Virus record (IMG/VR): IMGVR_UViG_3300037322_000284
Direction: 5' to 3' (one strand)
Source of the DNA: an uncultured virus (IMG/VR IMGVR_UViG_3300037322_000284)
Taxonomy: Duplodnaviria; Heunggongvirae; Uroviricota; Caudoviricetes
Length of the DNA stretch: 64,000 bases
Below the pieces are notes generated by a model, which was not told where the DNA came from, did no database searches, and was given only the letters and a program-made list of their open reading frames with translations. Numbering within the stretch: the first letter of the stretch is position 1; the number at the start of each line of letters is the position of its first letter. The position numbers and the translations under genes are program-made. Shown piece after piece: positions 6,220-43,943 of this stretch.

Positions 6220-6268
6220 TATCTTTGTAGGAGTAGAAAAGACTGTTTTATTTTCTTTTTTGCGGAAA
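6220..6268 (+). repeat. ~50-bp promoter-containing repeat, second copy at about 27330-27377
   Basis: TATCTTTGT..GTAGAAAAGACTGTTTTATTTTCTTTTTTGCGGAAA present at both loci. Confidence 0.75.
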
Positions 6269-21281: not shown

Positions 21282-21473
21282 ATGAAAACATTTAAAAAAA
21301 TTATCGGATACTTAATTGTATCACTTTTCGCAATAATGATAATATGCTGTTTTGCTTATAATATCTATCAAACTGGTTGGTACTTCATGCTACCCCTAGT
21401 TATTATTTTAGCTTTAGTTGGATTACTTATTTTTGGACTTCGTCTTTTAAGCGACAACGACCAAGCTGAGTGA
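21282..21473 (+). CDS. Cassette 1: small two-TM membrane protein
   Basis: 63 aa with two hydrophobic helices; stop codon lies inside AGTGACAAC. Confidence 0.75.
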   Translation: MKTFKKIIGYLIVSLFAIMIICCFAYNIYQTGWYFMLPLVIILALVGLLIFGLRLLSDNDQAE

Positions 21474-21474
21474 C

Positions 21475-21598
21475 AACGTCCGAGTGCTTGGCGAAGAAGC
21501 GGACTTATGAAAATTATATTTTCAGAAAACAATAAACGCAATTAGAATTACAAAACTTGAATTATAAACTGAACCCGCTTTTTTGCCAAACACTTGTT
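21475..21598. repeat. attC-like hairpin 2
   Basis: AAC-GTCC-GAGTGCTTGGCGAAGAAGCGG (21482-502) pairs with CCGCTTTTTTGCCAAACACTT-GTT (21575-98). Confidence 0.85.
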
Positions 21599-21632
21599 AT
21601 GTGATGAACGGGTTTTAACAACTAAATTAATT

Positions 21633-21935
21633 ATGAAACAATTAGCATCTATTAGAACAAATTTGAGCTTTTCAGTTGAAACAGGAACTACTGAATTAAA
21701 ACCGACAATTGAAATAGTATTGTTGACTTATAAGCCTGAATATTCATTTAATGCAAAAAGTGAAATTCAGCAAAAAAGAGCATTAGACGAAACAAGATTG
21801 ATATTAAGTACTGAAGGACTAAATCAAATGATTGCAAACTTACAATTATCTCTTGCTCAACTTCAACAATATGAACAAATGGGCGTTGCTTTAAATAACG
21901 TTATCAAGGCAATGAAAGTTGATGAAAAACCGTAA
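21633..21935 (+). CDS. Cassette 2: hypothetical protein (100 aa)
   Basis: Probable start MKQLA after A-rich leader, inside the cassette boundaries. Confidence 0.75.
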   Translation: MKQLASIRTNLSFSVETGTTELKPTIEIVLLTYKPEYSFNAKSEIQQKRALDETRLILSTEGLNQMIANLQLSLAQLQQYEQMGVALNNVIKAMKVDEKP

Positions 21936-21951
21936 ATATAGTTTATCACAT

Positions 21952-22037
21952 AACGGTTGGGTGTATGAGAAGGTTTGCTTAGATGAACTTTCAAATTACC
22001 ACAAATGTTGACAGCAAACTTTCTTATACACCTTGTT
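21952..22037. repeat. attC-like hairpin 3
   Basis: AAC-GGTT-GGGTGTATGAGAAGGTTTGCT (21959-79) pairs with AGCAAACTTTCTTATACACCT-T-GTT (22013-37). Confidence 0.85.
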
Positions 22038-22078
22038 ATATTTAGGTTTGTTTTTGTTTTACCGATTAAAAAAATGAT

Positions 22079-22450
22079 ATGAAAATAGAAAAAGTACATA
22101 ACAAAATTAGATATACACTATCTAACGAAAATCTTAAAGTTAGTGATGAAGTATTTCCAATAGCAAGAGGAAGATGTTTAGATGATGATGATGGATGGAT
22201 ATTACACGATTTAGATTTTCGTGATTTTATGAGTGGTTTTCCTGATGACCCACATATTATAATGGACTTGAATTATGACAATGGGAAACAAGGAAAGGCA
22301 TATCAAGTAAGAACTGATAATGGATATTCACCGATTGAGTGTTACTACAAAATTGTCAAAATAGAAGAAAAGATTAAAGTTAAGGAAAATATATTTGGTG
22401 GTTCTTACGAGTGGGTTGAAATAAAAAACTCAAAACAAAAACAAACTTGA
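22079..22450 (+). CDS. Cassette 3: hypothetical protein (123 aa)
   Basis: Bracketed by a 26-bp inverted repeat (23/26). Confidence 0.75.
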   Translation: MKIEKVHNKIRYTLSNENLKVSDEVFPIARGRCLDDDDGWILHDLDFRDFMSGFPDDPHIIMDLNYDNGKQGKAYQVRTDNGYSPIECYYKIVKIEEKIKVKENIFGGSYEWVEIKNSKQKQT

Positions 22451-22490
22451 ATATAGCTAATATTTGTGTGAATAATCTATAACCATTAAC
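22451..22490. other. Candidate attI-like primary recombination site
   Basis: Cassette 3 repeat ends at ATATAGC (22457) with no hairpin after it; CTATAAC at 22477-83; 51 bp upstream of the integrase. Confidence 0.45.
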
Positions 22491-22508
22491 AAAATCAACA
22501 TATAAGCC

Positions 22509-23312
22509 ATGAATATTCCTAAATACCTCGAAATGTATCGGAAAGACTTAATTTTAAAAAATTACTCTCACAACACGATAAAAAACTATGTCTATCAAGC
22601 AGATTTATTTTTAAGACATCAAGAAAAAGAGTTTACAGAACCATCAAAAGTAAACGAACAAGCAATTAAAAATTGGTTATTGCAATTCAAAACCAGAAAT
22701 GCAATGTGTCATTCATTATCTGCTTTAAAGTTGTTTTATAAAATGACAATTAAGCAACCAAGGAAGTTTCGTTATATTGAATACCCTCGCTCAGAAAAGA
22801 AGCTTCCAAGAATAATTGATAAGTCTTTTCTACTTGATTGTATTTCTAAAATAACAAACACTAAACACAAGGCTGTAATATCACTAGCATATTCAACAGG
22901 GATGAGAGTTTCAGAAGTTTGTAATTTAAAAATATCTGGCATTGACAGTAAAAGAATGGTAATCTCTATTAGACAGTCTAAAGGTAGAAAAGATAGAATC
23001 GTCGCTTTATCCGAGAAGATTTTAGTAATTCTCAGAGTTTATTTTTTAGAGTACAAACCTAAAGAATATTTATTTAATGGTCAATTTACGCAACAATATT
23101 CAACTACAAGTTGCAATCAAATTGTTAAAAAATACTTAGGTAAAGAATTTCACTTTCATCTTTTAAGGCACAGTAACGCCACAGCATTATTAGAAGCGGG
23201 TACGGATTTAAGGATTATTCAGAAACATCTTGGGCACTCAAGCTCAAAAACAACAGAAATATACACACACGTAAGCACTAATATTTTGCAATCAATGTCT
23301 TTACCCATTTAA
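22509..23312 (+). CDS. Tyrosine recombinase/integrase (SAM-like N-domain plus catalytic domain), no IntI I2 insertion
   Basis: YSHNTIKNY; YSTGMRVSE (R), KGRKDR (K), HLLRHS (HxxR), LGHSS (H), TEIYTH (Y). Confidence 0.95.
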   Translation: MNIPKYLEMYRKDLILKNYSHNTIKNYVYQADLFLRHQEKEFTEPSKVNEQAIKNWLLQFKTRNAMCHSLSALKLFYKMTIKQPRKFRYIEYPRSEKKLPRIIDKSFLLDCISKITNTKHKAVISLAYSTGMRVSEVCNLKISGIDSKRMVISIRQSKGRKDRIVALSEKILVILRVYFLEYKPKEYLFNGQFTQQYSTTSCNQIVKKYLGKEFHFHLLRHSNATALLEAGTDLRIIQKHLGHSSSKTTEIYTHVSTNILQSMSLPI

Positions 23313-23468
23313 AACTATTGTGACCCTAATAATAATTTTCTTTTTTATCAAAAATATAAACCAAACTTAGAATACTTAAAATAATCTAATACCCTAATTT
23401 TACATTATTATTTTAGAAACATTAGGGTATATATAAAATTTAAACTACCTTTGTAAAAACTAAACGAT

Positions 23469-27139: not shown

Positions 27140-27391
27140 AAAGTTACAAACAGTTTAACAAAGTTGGAGATACAATTAGATTGTTGTATTTTTGCATTAT
27201 AATTACTCGAACTAGGTTTAGTTATATTTAAGAAATTTAATTTTATATCACATCTAACCATAACCATTATAAATAACAAGCTTGTAGATTAATTTCTTCA
27301 AGCTTTTTTGTTTATTAGATATTTATTCTTATCTTTGTGGGGTAGAAAAGACTGTTTTATTTTCTTTTTTGCGGAAATTAACTTAAAAATA

Positions 27392-34616: not shown

Positions 34617-37600
34617 TTATTCTTCTTTCTTCTCTTCCAATAGAGGGTAAACTGTTAAATTTTTTAATGCTGAGTTTGAGGATACAAAGTTAAAATAATT
34701 ATAAGACTTTATTGTATTATCAACATCATCAAAAAGGTTATTATATTCTTTTAAAATAGGTAATTGTTTTAAAAAATACCTTTCTCTTTCTGTTTTACCT
34801 TTGTAACGTCCTCTTGTAATAACCTTATCCCCTGCAAGCGCATCTCCAATTTCTGTTACAGCCTCAATAGAATTTAAACCTACAATCATATTCTCTAAAG
34901 TTCCATAAACGTTTTCTGGGAGCCCCACTGTTGTTGAAGCTATTTCGTTTGTAGTTCTCATGAGAAATAGGGAAGATGTTTTAAAGAGGTAACTATCATC
35001 GTCATCGTCACCAAGTTCTTTAATAGCTGCCATCATTAAGGCTATAAGCCCATTTAGAACTGCCATTTCAATACCTGTTCTGATAATGTTTTTCTTAGTT
35101 GTCTCATCTCCATTCTCCCATCGCTCTTTCATGTAAGTTAAAATATTTTTAACTTTACCTGTCCTGATGTCTTTAATTGTGTCATTCACTACTCTGGAAA
35201 CAGATCTCCAAGTTCCTTCCTCAAAGTGGTTAGTACTAAAAGAAAACTGTCTGTTTTTAAGCCTTGTTTGCGCCGCTAAAAATAACCATCCTCTGTGTAT
35301 ATTAGTAAAACTAAACCATGCGTTTCTAGAAGATACTGATTTATCTTCCGTGGCTATTTGTTGATCCACTGATTGAATTGCTGCTTTTACTCTGGTTCTT
35401 AAAAGCGTGCCCTTCTTGTCCATAAAATCTTTAGCCTCTTGATCTGTAAAATTATTATTTAGATATTCTGCTATCTTTTTATAGTCAAAAGCTACTACCC
35501 CTGATTCGTCTAAATCAATTACGTCTGTTACGTCCTTATAATCGTTCCAAAGTTTTCTAACCTCTTTATCTGACTTCCCTTTAAACCCTTCTTTAAACTC
35601 TCTATAATCTATAAGATTTCCCTCTACGAATCTATTATTAGCTAAGACGGCTAAACCAACTCTAGGGTTTACTGGGAAGTTAGCCATTTGGTGCGCCACA
35701 TACGGAGATTTGCCAATTGCTCTAACTGATTTACCGTAATTAGAATTGTTAAATCTTTCTTCGTATTCGAAAAATCCGAATCTATCCCCCACTGCATTTA
35801 ACCAAGACTTTGATTCAAATCCCATAATCTCTCTCATACTGTCTCCACTATGTTTGAAGAAAAGTTTGTCCGCCCTTTTAGAAGCATCTTTGTCAACTTT
35901 CTCTCCCACTAATGTTTCTATTCTCTTTTGTACCGACCCTGTTAAAGCAGACGTTATAGGTATTGTTAAGTTAAAACCTAAATTCCTAAGTCTAATCCAA
36001 CCTCCAAAAGTTTTCAAAACCTTTCCTACATCAAAAGTAACCCCAGCCACAGAGTATTGCTTACTCACGGATTCTTTTATACCAAAGAAGTTTGCCTTTT
36101 TAAAATCGTCAAACATTTTATAGGCGTTTGTGTCCGCAGCAGATAAACCACCTTCAAATTCAGAACCTAATAAAGTTTCCTCTATAGCGGTCATATCCCC
36201 TATATTATTAACTCTAGCCCTATAAGTGTTAGCTTGTTTGTTCATCCAAATATAAGAAGCTAGTAATTCATCTGTTGCCACTGCTTGTTCTAGTTTTCTT
36301 ATTCCATATTTAGGTATAATATTTAGTCCGAAACTTCTTCTAGCTGTGGTGTTTATTGTATTCCCCTCTTCATCCTCTTGTTGTCCTAGTTCAGACTCAT
36401 CTTCTCTAAAAGTTAACATTTCGTCTAGTAAAGATTTAACTGACTTTTCTTTAGCGTTTTTAACAATTTCTTCAACTTTTCTAAATCTGTCTCTTTCTTT
36501 TTGTGGGACTAAGTAGGGATTATGACTACCTTCCATTCCATAAAGATCTATGGACCTTTTCTGTAAATTTAAAAACTCGTTTCTAGCTTCGTGTCTTTTA
36601 GTGTCTTTTCTAGAAACCTCTATACCTGTGTTGTAAAGCTCTACTAAATCTATGTCAAATTGTTTTAAATATTCCTTACTTACAAATTTATTTAGTAAGC
36701 CTCTATTAGCTAAATCATCAACAGTACTATTTCTTAATATATCCTCTGTAACACCCTCCTCGAAAGTTCTAAACATTGGATCTCCATTAGCCTTAGCATT
36801 TAAAAACTCTCTATTTAGCCTAGAATCATCCGCATCTTGGAAATTGAAGTTTGGAGATATTAATAAATTTTTATAATCGTCTTTACCATTGGTCTCTCTA
36901 TTTAGATAATTGTCAATAAATTCCGAAGCTGTTATAGCTCCCACTTCTAATTGTTCTAAGGCTATATCCGCCCCTTTAGGTTGAGATTTTTTAAAATAGG
37001 GAAGCATCCTAGAATAAGAGTAATTTAATAGTTCATTAGTCATTATAGCTTCTTGTTCTTCTACGCTTAAATTATTATAACTCTCTAACTCTTCTTTAAA
37101 AATGTAAGACAGTGCTTTATCTATTTTTTGAACTCTGCCTGAAGTAAAGTTTTTAATAAACATTTGAGCATCTTCTATTTTTCTTCTATTAGTCTGTGTT
37201 GAGTTATCACCCACCACTTTTAAAATATCTTTTATGTTTTCTTTATCCGCTTTATCTAAAGCTGTGTTTTCTGAATAATCTAACCTACCTATACCCTTAA
37301 TGTCAAGCATATACTCCTTAAAAGATTTATTTACTATGGTTTCTGATAAATCATCCTCTTGTATTTCGCTATCTTTCAGGAAAGCTCTTGACTCTCTATA
37401 AAGTTCTTCAAGTCTTTCTGAGTCTTCTCTAACTGAGCTGATTTCATAGGAATCCATATTATCATAGTTAACTTCGGACGGATTGTTTAGTCTTTTATTG
37501 GCTTGTAGGGTTTCTCCTCTTTTCTTAGAAAGATTTGCGATTTTTAATATTAAATTATCAATATCATAATCATTGTCCCCATCTTTTGCATCTTCTAATC

Positions 37601-40600
37601 TAGATAGTATTGAAGGTCTTTCTAAAGACTCGTAATACTTACTATCATACCCTACGTAAGAGTTCAACATAAGAAAGTTGTAAGCTTCCTCGGGTTGCAT
37701 TGCGCCGATCATATCTATAAATTTTTGAGGAAATATTACATTTTCTCCAAATCTCACTTTATTTGTGGCTCTCTTATTGTTATCAATTTGAGTTAATTCA
37801 AAACTTAATACTGCCTCTCTAGTTGCATTAGTGAGTAATTTAAAGTATAGTGACTCTCCTGTTTTAATTATGCCTTTTTCATGTTTCACAGTTATTCCAT
37901 CAATATCTACATCTATTAAAGAGTCTAAATATTCTTGTTCTGTAATTAAGATTTGATCTATTCCTTTCTTAACATCTCCATCATAATATATTGATTTATC
38001 GTGGACTCTTTGTTTTTTTAAAGCCTCCATATCAGAACGATTATCTTCTGTAAATGTCCTAACACCATCAATTACTTCTGCATTCTGCATAATATTGTTG
38101 TAGGCACCGCTTGATGTTTCTTCATAGTCCTGAGTCTCTTTAGAGTAACTAGCCAATCTTTCTCTTTTATCTCGCATTTCTTGTACAGAGAGTGGCGTAA
38201 GTCTTAGATTAGACAGTTCCCAATCTCCATACTTTTGATTAGCTTCTCGGAGTTGATCTACTGTTAATTTTCTAAACTGATCTTTTTTGTAAATTATGTC
38301 AAACTCCTCTTTAGTTAAAGTGTCAAGTTTTGTAACCTCTTTATATACTTCAAATCTTTTATCTGCTATCGCTTCTTCTCTAGCTTTATCATTAAATCTA
38401 TTTTGTAGAAAACCATTCTTAAAAAATTCTTTAGCTTTGTCGGCAAAGCCTAATTTAGTTAACTTATCTACAAATGGTTTAGAATCCTTTAGGAATCCCT
38501 CTGTTAATTCATCTACTGTCTTTGTTACTACGTGTCCTGCTGCATTTAAATATACGTTTGATGAATGTGATAAGGTACCAAATTGCATGAAAAACCAGTT
38601 TACCTCATTTTGTTTCTGACTTACTCTGTTTTTGACGTATTCTTTTCTTTCGTTTGATAGCCCTAATCTATCTGATATTGTATTGATTATATTCTCTTCC
38701 GCATTTATTTGCAGTACTCCAACTTGTCCTTCTAATTCTGTAATTGCGTTAATAGTTTTATCTATTTCACTTAAAACTTTTTCTTCTGCTCGTGTTTTGT
38801 TTTTACGATCCTCTAAAATAGTTTTAGTTATCGGTAAAATTTTTCTACCAAAGGATTGAACCATTGAAATATAAACCGCTCTTTCTTCTGAAGAGAAGTA
38901 GAAATTATCTTGTGCCTTTTTCTTAGCAGCTCTTTGTAAATAAGTTAATTGTTTTTGAGCCATAGCTGTTATAGCTGAAAAAGCAGCAACTGATTCAACA
39001 GCAATCTTAGCTTTAGCTATGTCAATATCTGAATTATTTGTTGCTGTATCCGCCTGTATTAATGCTTCAGAAACTGCTCTAACCGCTTCCCTTGCTGTCT
39101 TTGACAATTTCTTTTGTGAGGCATCGTTCTTAGAGGTCTGTTGGGAATAAGATTCTAATAAGTTTATAGCGTCCTCGGCTTGTTTTTGAATGTTTACTAA
39201 ATCACTACTAATATTTTTATTGGACGAGTATAATCTAAATTTAGTTCCAAACTCTTGGTCTAAGTTTAATTCATCTGCCAATTGCCCTGCCATTAACTTT
39301 GTATATAAATCTTTGTTTAATTTATCAATTTGTTGTTGATACTCTGGCTTGAAATAGTTTGAAATTTTTTGAAAGAATGTGTCTAAAACTTCTTTGATCT
39401 TAGAAAAAATAGACTGTTGTGTTAGAGTGGCGTTTTCTTCCAAAGCAAAATTAGTTTTTACAGCATTTGCCATAACTTTACCTAAAACTTCTCTTCTAAC
39501 CATTTCCTCTAACTTGTCCCCACTATATTCCTTAGCGTAAACTTCATAATAATGTGCTGAATGTTGTTGCCATTCAGGAGTTTTATGGATATTTTTTCTA
39601 ACCCCCTCCATAGATTCTTGATTAGAACTTGCCTCAATTAAGTGCATAGTTTCTTCAATTAGGTCATCTCTAGTTATAGTCCCATCTCTAAAAGCCATAA
39701 CTTTATTTACCAAGTCCATTAAAGCTGTTGAATTCATATTAACCCCTTCATTTTTTAAACTGGTATTTTTAACGTAGTCTTCTATTGATGTAATACTAAC
39801 TCCCATCTTTGTAAGTAGGGATTTTATAGAGTTTATTAACTCATCCTCGGATTTTATCTCAATATCTTGACTTAATTTTTTCTGATTTTTAGATGGCATT
39901 AAGGCTTTTTCTATCTCTCTTGATACTTCAAAATTTAATGCAATATCCTCTCCAAACTCTTTTTTAAGAGCTTCGTAATTCATTTCTTTAAGTCCGTTCT
40001 CCTTATATTCCTTACCATTAATAATCCTCTTACCTTTATTGTTAATAAGAATAATATCTCCTGTTTTTGTTCTCTTAACTGAGCGTTGCCCCAACATTTT
40101 AGTGGCTATTGTTTCTAAATTATTAGCTGTTAAATGTTTAGCCGTTATTGTTTCGCCCGTTACTACTAATATTTCATCTCCATTAACTTCTAATATTCTT
40201 TCTCCTGTTAGTCCGCCTGCTTTTACAAATGAATTTATAAGTCCTTCATAAGTGTCTATATTTGTATCTGAATTTACCTCTGCTACTACAACTCCCTCAA
40301 TTTTAAGTTTTATTTCTCCCTCGTTTGTGTTTTGTAAAGCCTCTTGGTATGTATTATAAATTTGTCCAGAAGGTGTTTCAAAAATTAAATTTGGTTCTAT
40401 TGCTTTTTGAAAAGCTATTACAGGGTTGTTTACTTCGCTTGCTTCTATTTTGGTTTCATACCAATCAAACCCATTTTCATCAGTTACTGTCTCTACGTTT
40501 TCTTCTCCTCTTTCAATTTCTAAAAGTCTTTTAAGTTCTTTGTATTTTCTTGCTACTGTTTGTTCTGTGTCTGACAGGTCAGAAATTTGGAAATTCCAAG

Positions 40601-43600
40601 ATTTTTTGGCTTTATTTCCTAAATATACTTGTGGTTGTGAAAACCTCTCAAGTCCGCCTGAAATAAAAGTAATCATTCCCTTACCATTGTAGCTATACCT
40701 TACACCTCCTATTTGATGGATACCTATTTGTACATCTTCTCCGAACTCTTTCTTAAATACTTCTTTATTATACTGTATTGATTTTTCATTATCAATTTTT
40801 ATTGCGGAAAATTCGCTATCATCTGCTCTTGTTACAGCATAAGCTTGTGCACCAATCATTATAATATCAGTAGGTTCTAAGACTACAACATTACCATTAC
40901 TATCCACAGTTTCAGAATTATACTCTAAATCTCTTGATATGATATTATATGGTAATTGGGTAGAATCATAATTTTCATCTTTAATGTATCCCTCAATAAC
41001 ACTTAAAGTATATGGTGTAGGTAGTCTAAATGTTGTTGCGCCACTTAAAGATGCTTCTTTTAATGCTTCTCTTAATAGTCTTTTTTCCCATTCTTTTTGA
41101 GATGCTATAAATTGTTTTTCTTGTGGTGAAAAAATATTATCTATGTGTTTTTGCTCTCTAACTTTTTCATCTTTTATAAAAGCGTCTACTTCTTTTTCGT
41201 TGTTATTGTACTTTTTAACAAAATCAAAAACATTAATACTTCCTTTGAGATAAGCATCTATTACTTGATTTTTTACATTTAACGCTTCTATCTGTTCAGT
41301 AACTTCATTGAAGTCTTTATTATTTCTAATTTCACTTAAAAGTCTGTCATATTTCCCTATCTTCTTGTTATTTTCGGTTTTTATTTCCGACAAACTCTCT
41401 TTTGATGGGTGTTTTTCTCTAAAGTTATTAGGTGTAAAACCCTGTTTGGTAAAAAACTCTTCTCTCTTTTTAGTAAACTCTTTTGTCGTAAAATATGCTG
41501 ATTTTTCTTTGATTAATAAATCCTTTGCTTTGTATTTTTGGTAGAAATCACTTTGTGCTTCAGCGACATAAAATATATCTCCATCTTGCCATACACGAAT
41601 ATGAGCAAACATTCCTTTGTTTATACTTATATTAACTCCTTTATTTTGTAAATATTCTAATCTTTTCTTTTCTTTTTCATCCAAAGATGCTATGGCTCTT
41701 TTCCTAGTTAAGTCTGACATTTCTTCCATTTCTTTTTCAGATAATCCTTCATAAGACTCATACTCATTTATCCAAACATCGACAGCTTCTTTTGTACCCG
41801 CAGTTCCTACAAACTGATAAATATTATTATCATTTGCTCCTTGTGCTTGATAATTTTCTTCAACTGCTACCCAAGTGTTACCATTAAGTTGTTTAGAAAT
41901 ATATTTAATATCTTTTCTTCCACTCGCTTTAAATGCTTCACTAAGATGTCCTGTTATTGCGTGCTCAATCGGAGTGTTTAATATAATAGTGTTAGCCGTT
42001 CCGTATTTTCCATCACCTAAATTATCCATTCCATAGTTGGCATAACTTGAAGTGAATACTCTTTCTAGTGGCATTATATTAGCTCTAACTGTTGCTTCTA
42101 ATTCGTCATAACTTATTTTCTTTTGTCCCACATAATTTTCTTCAATTATGTTTTTTATTAACTCTTTTTCAATTTGTTTTATTCCTGTTTGATTTAAAGA
42201 ATTTAAAACAGTTAGTGGGTTTATCTGTTTGCCTTGTAATTTTACAAATTCAGGTCTGCTAAAAACAGCTAATGTTAAAGGTAGTCTATCTGCTTCTCTA
42301 GTAAAATACTGTTGTGCTTGACTGCCTTTTATATTGTTTCCTTGTAATAAACTTACTCCCATTGCAGTAGCATACTCACCTAAGTTTAGGTTAGCAATTT
42401 GTTGAGGAGTCATATTAGTAATCCCTAACATTTTACCGATAGTTTCCCAAAAGTCCGAAAGCCATTGCATCAATGGGGATTTAGCTTTTTGTTCATCCAT
42501 CATTTCTCCTGCTTTTCTTGAAATAGTCTCTGTTAAAATTTCTTCTAATAGTGCTTCTCCTTTTAAGTTGGGTTGGGTCTCTTTAATAAATGCGATTATA
42601 TCTTTTATTTCGCTGTTTGGGTTATTGATTTCCTCTGAAACAAGTTCAATTCCTTTATCGTATGTAGCTTTATTAGTAGTTTTAAGTGTTGATAGTAGTA
42701 AATGTCCATATTCATGTACAAAAGTTTCATTATTGGCTAAATCCGAGTTAAAGTAAACATCGTTATTAAATACAAATCCTAAAGTAGTCATCTGAACATT
42801 ATCTGCTCCAAGCTCTTCTAGTTTTGCATTAATTTCCGCTGTTGACATTTGGAAAACATTTTCTGCAAGTCCGCTCTCTTTTAGTCTGTCTATTACTTCT
42901 TGGTCTGCTGATTTAGTTGTTTGTCTTGTAGTATCATTAAAAATATCATCTGTAAATATACTAATAACTTCATTTTTATTTATGCCCTCCTTATTTTGTA
43001 ATAAATTTAGTAGGTCTTCATAACGATATTCAGAGTTCTTAAAGTTATCTCTTAATTTTAAAGCTTGTTCAACAACTCTAGCATCAATCTCTCCTTGTAG
43101 TAAGTCTAATTGGGATATTAATAAATCATTATTATTTATATCTGCTATTAGTTTTCTTGCTGAAAGTATGACTTTTTTCTCGTTACTAGTTAAATTATTT
43201 AAAGGGTAGTTATTAATGATGCTAACTGTTTCCAATGCTAACAACTCTTGCGATTTTGTTATAAAAATTGCATTTTTTATAATTGTATATGGGTTGCCTC
43301 CTCTAGCAAATCCTTCAACGTTTTGGATGTAGTGTTGGAATTCGTGGGCAGTAATACTTGTGATATCTTTTCCATCAGGATTGTCTGTTCGTATGAACAT
43401 TGTAGCCTCTCCCTCGGATGTTGTGTTAATTGCTCCATTTGACCCTCTATATCTTTCTGAGATGTCCAAATTTGTTTTGTCATAATATATTATTTTTAAA
43501 TTTTTAGACTCTGGGTACAATTGAAATAGGATATTACCCTCCCCTAAAACTTCTACTAGACGTTGTTCTTTGTTTAATGTTATGTTACTTAAATTAAATT

Positions 43601-43943
43601 GCCTTAGTATCTTATTGGAGAGATACTTCCACTGCCCCTCATCGTTTTTAAACCACCCTGTTTGAGAATAGTCTTTGTTTTGAGAGTCTAATTGTTTTGC
43701 TTCGTCTAAAAGGGTTTTATATTCTTCTACTTTTGACGCTCCTTTTTCTCCAATTACTTGGAATCTTATAGAATCTTTTAACTTTTCACCATAGATATTT
43801 TTATAAGCGTCTATAGACTGTTCCAAACTTAATATCGGAGTATTAAATATTTCTTTAAAAAGCTTACTAGTATTGCCCGATTGATCTAACACACCGTTGA
43901 TTTTACCGTCTTTATTCTTTGTTATTTTACAGCCTTTAGCCAT
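34617..43943 (-). CDS. Giant polyvalent (probably ejected) protein: LPD23-like domain plus several zincin-like motifs
   Basis: TGWFKNDEGQWKY (LPD23-like), AHEFQHYIQNVEGFARGG...GEIDAR, VHEYGH, EETMHLI. Confidence 0.75.
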   Translation of the reverse strand: MAKGCKITKNKDGKINGVLDQSGNTSKLFKEIFNTPILSLEQSIDAYKNIYGEKLKDSIRFQVIGEKGASKVEEYKTLLDEAKQLDSQNKDYSQTGWFKNDEGQWKYLSNKILRQFNLSNITLNKEQRLVEVLGEGNILFQLYPESKNLKIIYYDKTNLDISERYRGSNGAINTTSEGEATMFIRTDNPDGKDITSITAHEFQHYIQNVEGFARGGNPYTIIKNAIFITKSQELLALETVSIINNYPLNNLTSNEKKVILSARKLIADINNNDLLISQLDLLQGEIDARVVEQALKLRDNFKNSEYRYEDLLNLLQNKEGINKNEVISIFTDDIFNDTTRQTTKSADQEVIDRLKESGLAENVFQMSTAEINAKLEELGADNVQMTTLGFVFNNDVYFNSDLANNETFVHEYGHLLLSTLKTTNKATYDKGIELVSEEINNPNSEIKDIIAFIKETQPNLKGEALLEEILTETISRKAGEMMDEQKAKSPLMQWLSDFWETIGKMLGITNMTPQQIANLNLGEYATAMGVSLLQGNNIKGSQAQQYFTREADRLPLTLAVFSRPEFVKLQGKQINPLTVLNSLNQTGIKQIEKELIKNIIEENYVGQKKISYDELEATVRANIMPLERVFTSSYANYGMDNLGDGKYGTANTIILNTPIEHAITGHLSEAFKASGRKDIKYISKQLNGNTWVAVEENYQAQGANDNNIYQFVGTAGTKEAVDVWINEYESYEGLSEKEMEEMSDLTRKRAIASLDEKEKKRLEYLQNKGVNISINKGMFAHIRVWQDGDIFYVAEAQSDFYQKYKAKDLLIKEKSAYFTTKEFTKKREEFFTKQGFTPNNFREKHPSKESLSEIKTENNKKIGKYDRLLSEIRNNKDFNEVTEQIEALNVKNQVIDAYLKGSINVFDFVKKYNNNEKEVDAFIKDEKVREQKHIDNIFSPQEKQFIASQKEWEKRLLREALKEASLSGATTFRLPTPYTLSVIEGYIKDENYDSTQLPYNIISRDLEYNSETVDSNGNVVVLEPTDIIMIGAQAYAVTRADDSEFSAIKIDNEKSIQYNKEVFKKEFGEDVQIGIHQIGGVRYSYNGKGMITFISGGLERFSQPQVYLGNKAKKSWNFQISDLSDTEQTVARKYKELKRLLEIERGEENVETVTDENGFDWYETKIEASEVNNPVIAFQKAIEPNLIFETPSGQIYNTYQEALQNTNEGEIKLKIEGVVVAEVNSDTNIDTYEGLINSFVKAGGLTGERILEVNGDEILVVTGETITAKHLTANNLETIATKMLGQRSVKRTKTGDIILINNKGKRIINGKEYKENGLKEMNYEALKKEFGEDIALNFEVSREIEKALMPSKNQKKLSQDIEIKSEDELINSIKSLLTKMGVSITSIEDYVKNTSLKNEGVNMNSTALMDLVNKVMAFRDGTITRDDLIEETMHLIEASSNQESMEGVRKNIHKTPEWQQHSAHYYEVYAKEYSGDKLEEMVRREVLGKVMANAVKTNFALEENATLTQQSIFSKIKEVLDTFFQKISNYFKPEYQQQIDKLNKDLYTKLMAGQLADELNLDQEFGTKFRLYSSNKNISSDLVNIQKQAEDAINLLESYSQQTSKNDASQKKLSKTAREAVRAVSEALIQADTATNNSDIDIAKAKIAVESVAAFSAITAMAQKQLTYLQRAAKKKAQDNFYFSSEERAVYISMVQSFGRKILPITKTILEDRKNKTRAEEKVLSEIDKTINAITELEGQVGVLQINAEENIINTISDRLGLSNERKEYVKNRVSQKQNEVNWFFMQFGTLSHSSNVYLNAAGHVVTKTVDELTEGFLKDSKPFVDKLTKLGFADKAKEFFKNGFLQNRFNDKAREEAIADKRFEVYKEVTKLDTLTKEEFDIIYKKDQFRKLTVDQLREANQKYGDWELSNLRLTPLSVQEMRDKRERLASYSKETQDYEETSSGAYNNIMQNAEVIDGVRTFTEDNRSDMEALKKQRVHDKSIYYDGDVKKGIDQILITEQEYLDSLIDVDIDGITVKHEKGIIKTGESLYFKLLTNATREAVLSFELTQIDNNKRATNKVRFGENVIFPQKFIDMIGAMQPEEAYNFLMLNSYVGYDSKYYESLERPSILSRLEDAKDGDNDYDIDNLILKIANLSKKRGETLQANKRLNNPSEVNYDNMDSYEISSVREDSERLEELYRESRAFLKDSEIQEDDLSETIVNKSFKEYMLDIKGIGRLDYSENTALDKADKENIKDILKVVGDNSTQTNRRKIEDAQMFIKNFTSGRVQKIDKALSYIFKEELESYNNLSVEEQEAIMTNELLNYSYSRMLPYFKKSQPKGADIALEQLEVGAITASEFIDNYLNRETNGKDDYKNLLISPNFNFQDADDSRLNREFLNAKANGDPMFRTFEEGVTEDILRNSTVDDLANRGLLNKFVSKEYLKQFDIDLVELYNTGIEVSRKDTKRHEARNEFLNLQKRSIDLYGMEGSHNPYLVPQKERDRFRKVEEIVKNAKEKSVKSLLDEMLTFREDESELGQQEDEEGNTINTTARRSFGLNIIPKYGIRKLEQAVATDELLASYIWMNKQANTYRARVNNIGDMTAIEETLLGSEFEGGLSAADTNAYKMFDDFKKANFFGIKESVSKQYSVAGVTFDVGKVLKTFGGWIRLRNLGFNLTIPITSALTGSVQKRIETLVGEKVDKDASKRADKLFFKHSGDSMREIMGFESKSWLNAVGDRFGFFEYEERFNNSNYGKSVRAIGKSPYVAHQMANFPVNPRVGLAVLANNRFVEGNLIDYREFKEGFKGKSDKEVRKLWNDYKDVTDVIDLDESGVVAFDYKKIAEYLNNNFTDQEAKDFMDKKGTLLRTRVKAAIQSVDQQIATEDKSVSSRNAWFSFTNIHRGWLFLAAQTRLKNRQFSFSTNHFEEGTWRSVSRVVNDTIKDIRTGKVKNILTYMKERWENGDETTKKNIIRTGIEMAVLNGLIALMMAAIKELGDDDDDSYLFKTSSLFLMRTTNEIASTTVGLPENVYGTLENMIVGLNSIEAVTEIGDALAGDKVITRGRYKGKTERERYFLKQLPILKEYNNLFDDVDNTIKSYNYFNFVSSNSALKNLTVYPLLEEKKEE

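Follow-up and report, generated by a model that had tools for sequence, protein, structure and literature searches.

Can gene cassettes be exchanged at folded hairpin sites by a tyrosine recombinase that has no I2 helix? According to the abstract of PMC7790495, the current view is that gain of this helix is what enabled the integron integrase IntI to recombine single-stranded hairpins. The question is raised by a phage locus within a 64,000-nucleotide (nt) stretch of DNA from an uncultured virus (IMG/VR record IMGVR_UViG_3300037322_000284), referred to below as the window, in which an open reading frame (ORF) of 267 amino acids (aa; 22509..23312, plus strand, ATG start), identified from the ORF list and by profile searches, encodes a tyrosine recombinase without the additional domain of IntI. 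We think that this ORF, hereafter int, is the integrase of an integron-like gene-cassette platform in Bacteroidota phages, i.e. a phage-borne variant of the integron, and we give this reading a probability of roughly 0.65.

A two-domain recombinase without the IntI insertion

The int product has two domains, neither of them an arm-binding N-terminal domain; its catalytic domain is that of Pfam PF00589 (1.2e-38) and is accompanied by a SAM-like N-terminal domain. A first-pass annotation, made from the sequence alone, had listed the catalytic residues (R, K, HxxR, H and Y) as intact. This is borne out by an alignment of 16 family members, each 50-84% identical to the window protein, in which R133, K158, H217, R220, H243 and Y252 are unvaried; from the alignment to Pfam, XerA and IntI4, and from general knowledge of such enzymes, we take these to be the R-K-H-R-H-Y catalytic set. 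The same annotation had estimated about 25 aa between the motifs YLFNG (187-191) and HLLRH (217-221), and the number is exactly 25. This short segment stands in place of the IntI insert, and within it LFNGQ (188-192), Y197, S201 and C202 do not vary in the family.

The claim that the IntI-specific I2 insertion is absent also held. Aligned by phmmer with VchIntIA (structure 2a3v), the protein matches in two pieces, query residues 10-177 with 9-179 of the chain and 212-256 with 262-306, and 34 of its residues stand opposite 82 of Vibrio IntI4, a deficit of 48; therefore it has no I2 helix or additional domain. The NCBIfam integron-integrase profile TIGR02249 gives 131 bits, split over two stretches, against a cut-off of 265, and PRK15417 gives 85 bits against a cut-off of 435. 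In an AlphaFold model built on the 16-member alignment (mean predicted local distance difference test score, pLDDT, 86.7), residues 183-198 form a loop and the extra helix is absent.

The top NCBIfam match is instead archaeal XerA (NF040815; 173 bits, below the 220-bit cut-off), while the scores for XerC (149 bits, cut-off 335) and XerD (144 bits, cut-off 330) both fail. XerA 5hxy (9e-32) is also the closest solved structure, followed by IntI4 2a3v (2e-22), and Foldseek ranks the model in the same order. Archaeal XerA (5hxy, 4a8e) and the Xer family are thus the best match in sequence and fold, with the same insert-free two-domain size, whereas the window enzyme scores below the XerA cut-off, is carried by a phage and is linked to cassette arrays instead of a dif site. 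The best 120 database clusters of its relatives are 73-99% identical and almost all 267 aa long.

We placed the family in an unrooted tree of 50 rows (IQ-TREE, LG+C20), in which sampling is limited. IntI1 and 11 Bacteroidota IntI form one clade on a long stem (support 100/100). The phage integrases lie outside it in a separate clade (98/96, 23 rows) that includes, nested on long branches, the integrases of phages Freya and Ingeline, and XerC/D-like genes from two Bacteroidota genomes make up a further branch (100/99). A tree that keeps the phage family with the Bacteroidota IntI is worse by 106 log-likelihood (lnL) units and is rejected by the approximately unbiased (AU) test (p-AU 0.0005). 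Nesting of the phage family inside IntI is rejected by this test, and a Xer/XerA-like enzyme, lacking I2 and standing outside the IntI clade and apart from the XerC/D-like branch, is supported. The order in which IntI, the phage clade, a chromosomal group (about 43% identity with the window protein) and other Xer-like groups branched is left unsettled by the 50 rows.

Homologues about 40-44% identical, 345-355 aa long and without the IntI insert, are common in Bacteroidota chromosomes. At least a dozen of these loci have a contig end within a few hundred nt 3' of the homologue gene, which suggests an adjacent repeat.

Hairpins upstream of int

The first-pass annotation had tied the enzyme to hairpin sites, and this link proved to be a tight, directional association in which cassettes are exchanged exactly at AAC. 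Wherever a hairpin of the window type and a full int lie within 3 kilobases (kb) of each other, the hairpin is upstream and on the same strand (15/15 rows, 14 places). On the 80 viral int loci we also ran a scan that considers structure only (TAAC...GTTA, 36-135 nt, DNA fold <= -9 kcal/mol), and found 183 hairpins in the 201 kb upstream of int (0.91 per kb) against 35 in the 290 kb downstream (0.12 per kb), an excess of about 7.5-fold; with the other strand folded, the same stretches give 141 and 33 sites. At least one hairpin lies within 1.5 kb upstream of int in 46 of 52 loci, and downstream in 10 of 76.

The 181 distinct sites differ in sequence and share their boxes and architecture, with a modal length of 120-129 nt, G after TAAC in 87%, A at position -11 in 91% and T before GTTA in 90%. 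A 5' spacer of 3-5 nt is present in 133 of them and a 3' spacer of 0 nt in 125; a 5-bp R box with a 3-4-nt 5' bulge and nothing opposite is the commonest form (93/181). The int-sense strand is the better folder in 179 of 195 sites of a strand-symmetric set, which it achieves through G-T (G-U) pairs, 2.7 per site.

Two such hairpins stand in the window. The one nearer to int (21951..22039, plus strand, about 90 nt) reads TAAC-GGTTG-GGTGTATGAGAAGGTTTGCT-loop-AGCAAACTTTCTTATACACC-TT-GTTAT, so that the asymmetric bulge of 4-5 nt beside AAC, as first described, is found again, with GGTTG in the 5' arm facing TT in the 3' arm. Its surroundings (21925-22050) were picked out by tblastx as conserved in three distant loci, and the 136 nt from 21925 to 22060 fold as DNA at -20.3 kcal/mol (z = -4.3), which none of 200 shuffles matched; the constrained fold of the hairpin itself gives -15.5 on the plus and -11.0 on the minus strand. 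An exact 19-mer of it occurs in 118 viral contig stretches, with multiple copies in some contigs, and in one metagenome run (X2) it appears as separate unitigs of 68-88 nt at high depth. The left flank of this hairpin type carries ATTrCnnnT-AAC, the same motif as the int-proximal junction described below. Rfam gave no family match, neither across the window nor around the hairpin. The other hairpin (21474..21600, plus strand, 127 nt) reads CAAC-GTCC-stem...stem-T-GTTAT and has an unconstrained DNA fold of -18.9 kcal/mol on the plus and -14.6 on the minus strand; the TAAC-based scan misses it because its 5' box is CAAC.

The integrase-proximal junction

A conserved motif just before int was found by regular expression in 55 of the 80 loci (53 distinct); the other 25, truncated or divergent at the junction, stand outside the consensus. 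AAC is unvaried in all 53, about 56 nt (52-56 nt) 5' of the start codon, and the consensus from there onward is (T)AAC-TAC-TATATGTA. Conserved sequence starts at this AAC: to its left, sequences and genes are unrelated between loci, DNA methyltransferases among them, apart from a T at position -8 (46/46 loci) within the loose motif ATTrCnnnT. The sequence 3' of the int stop codon also varies between the relatives' loci. In the window this attI-like site and its leader occupy 22457..22508 (plus strand), reading C-TAA-TATTTGTG... in ungapped alignment to the family consensus.

Five IMG/VR contigs begin exactly at TAAC and two more at most 4 nt away. Genome ends with terminal repeats were considered and rejected as an account of these starts, the opposite ends of three such contigs being without a copy of the site. 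One contig (53,196 nt, CheckV 100%) has ...CCGTTACC at its start and the int-proximal TAAC at its other end; were it circular, the two ends would meet as ...GGTAACGG|TAACGTC, with a near-tandem GTAACG that we leave unexplained.

Cassettes and their movement

At least three cassette ends precede int in the window, all on the plus strand. Cassette A (21282..21477, counted from the ORF start) holds a 63-aa ORF at 21282-21473 and ends in ...AAGCTGAGTGAC-AAC (AAC at 21475-21477), matching the AAGCTGAGTGAT-AAC that abuts the int module in two other loci. The coding part of cassette B (21633..21954) has an ORF running to 21935, of 113 aa if read from TTG 21594 or 100 aa from ATG 21633, and ends in TTATCACAT-AAC (AAC at 21952-21954). 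The body of cassette C (22040..22456) comprises a 39-nt leader and a 123-aa ORF (22079-22450), whose product has no match in Pfam or PHROGs, and ends in CTTGAATAT-AG.

Window positions 21955-22457, i.e. the hairpin with the 123-aa ORF, recur in two other viral loci (L088 and L096), where homology runs from just after AAC to CTTGAATAT-AAC. Beyond it the flanks are unrelated on both sides: int follows in the window, a different small hairpin in L088 and unrelated sequence in L096.

An insertion polymorphism is seen in cultured Polaribacter phages. Freya_1 and Freya_10 have flanks that are 100% identical over 1679 nt and differ in length by about 4.9 kb; the Freya_10 insert begins right after ...ATTGTTTAC-AAC and ends with ...ATTGTTGCT-AAC beside the int-proximal sequence. 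The ends of the inner Freya modules carry the same motif, and Freya_6 represents another combination.

Sequencing runs yield contigs of relatives only (share at most 0.35). Contigs from four metagenome runs break off or change sequence at 21951-21955, 22039-22047 and 22455-22457; by run, the ends fall at 21477 in X2 and X3 and at 21955 in X1 and X4, with loose ends at 21949-21959. In run X1, a 1965-nt contig shares the window sequence from 22457 on, behind a different cassette end (...ATTACCGCTAA), and a 1069-nt contig of run X3 has 22040-22455 between other flanks. One X1 contig joins 20990 to 23470 (side 39) and skips 2479 nt with the cassettes and int; it could stem from a relative that lacks this entire block, and is not interpretable.

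Among the relatives, hairpins bound 183 inferred cassettes with a median length of 489 nt (interquartile range 383-763), in which a median of 31 nt separates the hairpin from the start of the ORF, and a median of 14 nt separates the end of the ORF from the next TAAC. On a 293-kb contig of a Flavobacterium metagenome-assembled genome (MAG; locus L313, 10417-12817), four hairpin and small-ORF cassettes (92, 73, 70 and 81 aa) lie directly upstream of an int 73% identical to that of the window, and a second copy is on another contig of the same MAG. A promoter of its own for each cassette was rejected on account of the median leader length and the background level of the Bacteroidetes -7 motif TAnnTTTG.

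Most cargo matches no Pfam family: of 150 cassette proteins, 128 are without a match and 22 have one. DNA-modification enzymes account for 14 of the 22, namely eight N6/N4 DNA methylases, four C5 DNA methylases, one Dam-type methylase and one Mom (thus 13/150 DNA methyltransferases and one Mom-like protein), and such cargo would fit a role in counter-defence. The rest are four YopX, one PAPS reductase, DUF551, DUF7736 and one weak partial match.

Comparison with canonical integrons and other known systems

Full-length IntI scoring above the TIGR02249 cut-off was found in 113 of the 401 Bacteroidota genomes that were sampled. A scan of the canonical loci for the three-letter boxes AAC/GTT proved too noisy, and a TAAC/GTTA scan, which misses CAAC-type sites, was used instead. 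With intI on the plus strand, the arrays lie upstream of it, and their attC sites read TAAC-G-ACCC-stem...stem-TT-GTTA over 84 or about 118 nt. A 5-bp R box with 4 nt bulged on the 5' side and none opposite is the commonest form both here (29/72) and in the phage sites (67/181). The intI-sense strand is the better folder in 58 of the 72. Transcription does not explain this bias in the canonical arrays, because the better-folding strand there is the non-coding one, the longest ORF lying opposite to intI in 37 cassettes and on the same strand in 7. The canonical attI reads TAAC-ATAATATTAT and is about 215 nt from intI. Integrons of the canonical type whose long arrays consist of near-identical attC sites (TAACGACCCGGCGTTTAAGCGG...) are frequent in Bacteroidota; five loci serve as examples.

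The likeness to the IntI platform (VchIntIA/IntI4 2a3v, IntI1) is one of layout. In both, the recombinase gene reads away from an adjoining attI-type site and array, the hairpins have the attC-type order TAAC, bulge, stem, GTTA over 70-130 nt, cassettes measure about 0.5 kb and join at AAC, and the integrase-sense strand folds better. An integrase beside an attI-type site and an attC-bounded cassette array is what defines an integron system, and the relatives have it, the window with two hairpins and three ends. In contrast, the phage enzyme has no additional domain or I2 helix and lies outside the IntI clade, and its attI-type site differs in sequence and stands 52-56 nt rather than about 215 nt from the integrase gene; the platform as a whole is carried in phage genomes. 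The reading direction differs as well: integron cassettes are promoterless and are transcribed from a common promoter, Pc, away from the integrase (7 same-strand against 37 opposite in the canonical arrays), whereas in the phages 160 of 172 decisive cassettes have their longest ORF on the int strand, pointing toward int, and 12 on the other; the promoter Pc was not searched for.

This similarity bears on the proposal, made in the first-pass annotation, that a XerD-like clade may have evolved hairpin-site recombination by itself, possibly by reading the asymmetric bulge. The enzyme is indeed Xer-like, free of I2 and linked to hairpins, and it may have an independent origin of hairpin use. This last part fared less well: since the phage hairpins share the attC layout of canonical Bacteroidota integrons, and since the branching order is unsettled, a shared origin, or the capture of a cassette system that already existed, is no less likely. 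The enzyme may read the bulge, with the unvaried LFNGQ...Y..S..SC loop (188-202) as the candidate contact.

Arrays of this kind have been met in phages before. Qi et al. 2023 report in the text of PMC9892861 17 clusters of attC sites (CALINs) 'lacking an integron-integrase' among 10,705 phage genomes, one of them in Polaribacter phage P12002L with DNA methyltransferase cassettes, and show that IntI1 recombines 5/6 phage attC sites in E. coli. These are attC sites and short arrays in virulent phages, with DNA methyltransferase cargo as in our loci; they are described there as having no integrase, whereas each array analysed here terminates beside a recombinase gene that is dedicated to it and has a site of its own. 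The main text of that article contains 'xer', 'additional domain' and 'flavobacter' 0 times each and so mentions no Xer-like partner. A literature search outside subscription journals and supplements found no description of the link between the recombinase and hairpin arrays.

The flavobacterial phages Freya, Ingeline and Leef have related integrases (32-34% identity with that of the window). In the tree, which covered Freya and Ingeline, these two belong to the clade of the window enzyme, and Freya has the same kind of AAC junction beside int. They differ in their long branches, in being annotated, in passages of PMC8776804, as lysogeny integrases only, and, for Freya, in modules that are mostly without long hairpins.

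Phage and host context

The window (G+C about 30%) is a phage contig, and its host is flavobacteria-like, within the Bacteroidota. Its closest cultured relatives at the DNA level are Flavobacterium, Cellulophaga and Polaribacter phages, with similarity over one gene only. The plus strand encodes replication and nucleotide metabolism (ribonucleotide reductase, thymidylate synthase, a family-A DNA polymerase and an A1-like DNA transfer protein), and from 30.7 kb onward the minus strand encodes giant virion proteins, of which a series of 3108, 1703, 1392, 1018 and 929 aa at 34617-43943 and neighbouring positions fills the minus-strand half. Phage genes flank int on both sides, and no transfer RNA (tRNA) genes were found in the window.

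The 156-nt gap 3' of int contains a 13-nt inverted repeat (ATACCCTAATTTT / AACATTAGGGTAT, 16 nt spacing, 23389-23430) and a further copy of ACCCTAAT near 23323. A 39-nt direct repeat, GGrGTAGAAAAGACTGTTTTATTTTCTTTTTTGCGGAAA, occurs at 6230-6268 and 27339-27377 (97% identical, both copies intergenic, 21 kb between them) and may be a phage promoter or another regulatory element.

Weighing the explanations

Several observations count against a phage-borne integron. That the window protein binds and cuts these hairpin sites is an inference. The window itself carries only two hairpins, and its own junction (22455-22457) reads AGC where the family has AAC, for which reason its last cassette may be locked in. 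No full int lies within 3 kb at 64 of 80 loci with a window-type hairpin, and when five hairpin-bearing contigs, all 26-84% complete, were searched whole, one had int and four had none. P12002L, with its published attC sites, has no annotated integrase, and long hairpins are few in the Freya phages. Any shared repeat would be expected to break metagenome contigs. The leaders are not enriched in TAnnTTTG (8/155 against 6.9 expected). The 123-aa protein of cassette C was not found in the 401 Bacteroidota genomes in a search run without a positive control, so that a cassette pool shared with hosts was set aside on a weak test. Finally, the tree has 50 rows and no root, and the hypothesis submitted to the AU test was named only after the tree had been inspected.

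Some of these points favour what we see as the main rival, namely that the arrays are of CALIN type and are shuffled by a canonical host IntI during infection, the 267-aa enzyme standing beside them by linkage only and doing other work, such as genome-dimer resolution or phage integration. The host enzyme could move the cassettes, because IntI1 recombines phage attC sites, as reported in the text of PMC9892861 for CALINs in phages, and because IntI is common in the host phylum, where attC has the same layout; the many hairpin loci without a nearby int agree with this. Nonetheless we regard this explanation as unlikely. It does not account for the strict polarity of the hairpins relative to int, both in the 15 rows and in the upstream excess, nor for an unvaried AAC 52-56 nt before int precisely where unrelated cassettes join, nor for the Freya insertion at the int-proximal AAC; moreover, the phage site is not the canonical attI, so that a host IntI would have to recognise an attI foreign to it.

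More doubtful still is an ordinary temperate-phage integrase, with AAC as the attP core and the variable upstream sequence due to mosaicism or attL junctions. In its favour, PHROGs places int among integrase families, some relatives sit on long contigs of Bacteroidota MAGs, and the clade holds the Ingeline and Freya integrases, which passages of Bartlau et al. 2021 (PMC8776804) read as a sign of temperate potential. The left flanks, however, consist of phage-like small ORFs and hairpin cassettes with a shared end motif instead of a single conserved bacterial target, and among the best 80 loci from 185,579 species genomes, the 11 with >=46% identity come without exception from MAG contigs, with none in isolate genomes. 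The absence of a tRNA gene from the window, the phage genes on either side of int and the two-domain enzyme without an arm-binding domain also speak against it.

That the hairpins are RNA elements (terminators or processing sites), with modules swapped by homologous recombination at shared sequence, seems very improbable: they do lie between co-oriented genes, their sense strand does gain from G-T (G-U) pairs and one type is nearly identical across the 118 contig stretches, whereas sequence-unrelated hairpins retain the TAAC/GTTA boxes and one-sided bulge, AAC junctions also occur at the hairpin-less int-proximal site and in Freya, and canonical arrays show the same strand bias with the better-folding strand antisense to most cassette ORFs.

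Proposed mechanism and implications

We therefore return to int as the integrase of a cassette platform. Comparative support for hairpin-site recombination by an I2-less Xer-like enzyme is strong, and the catalyst would be the phage int rather than a host IntI. The platform consists, on the int strand, of a row of compact cassettes upstream of int. Each unit has an attC-type hairpin, followed after about 31 nt of leader by a single small ORF in the orientation of int, and then by some 14 nt of tail whose end reads ATTrCnnnT-AAC; the int-proximal site, AAC-TAC-TATATGTA, lies 52-56 nt before the start codon. The int-sense strand would fold as a single-stranded substrate, TAAC pairing with GTTA to give a short R box, a one-sided bulge of 3-5 nt and a long stem. 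Recombinase subunits would bind this hairpin, Y252 would cut at or beside AA|C, and strand exchange with the double-stranded int-proximal site, presumably resolved by replication, would insert or remove a cassette, as IntI does with attC and attI. A precedent for I2-less Xer-type enzymes recombining a folded hairpin exists in host XerCD, which acts on the folded single-stranded attP of CTX-type phages, although in that case the enzyme is the host's, the whole phage is integrated at dif and there is no cassette array.

For the phages themselves, there is in our view an even chance that Bacteroidota phages own integrons, in which an I2-less Xer-like integrase works on folded attC hairpins and maintains exchangeable banks of small genes, many of them for DNA modification (anti-restriction), read in the direction of phage transcription. 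The cassette pools used by phage and host may be compatible, because integrons of the host phylum use attC of the same layout, and whole phages might enter host arrays through the phage site. If our reading is true, a natural and abundant I2-less clade tied to attC arrays would be a direct test of the view that the I2 helix made hairpin recombination possible, and would offer a minimal enzyme for work on structure-specific recombination. It would also account for the phage 'CALINs' that tools keyed to the IntI domain call orphan arrays, and would provide a mechanism for the swapping of small genes in virulent-looking phages.

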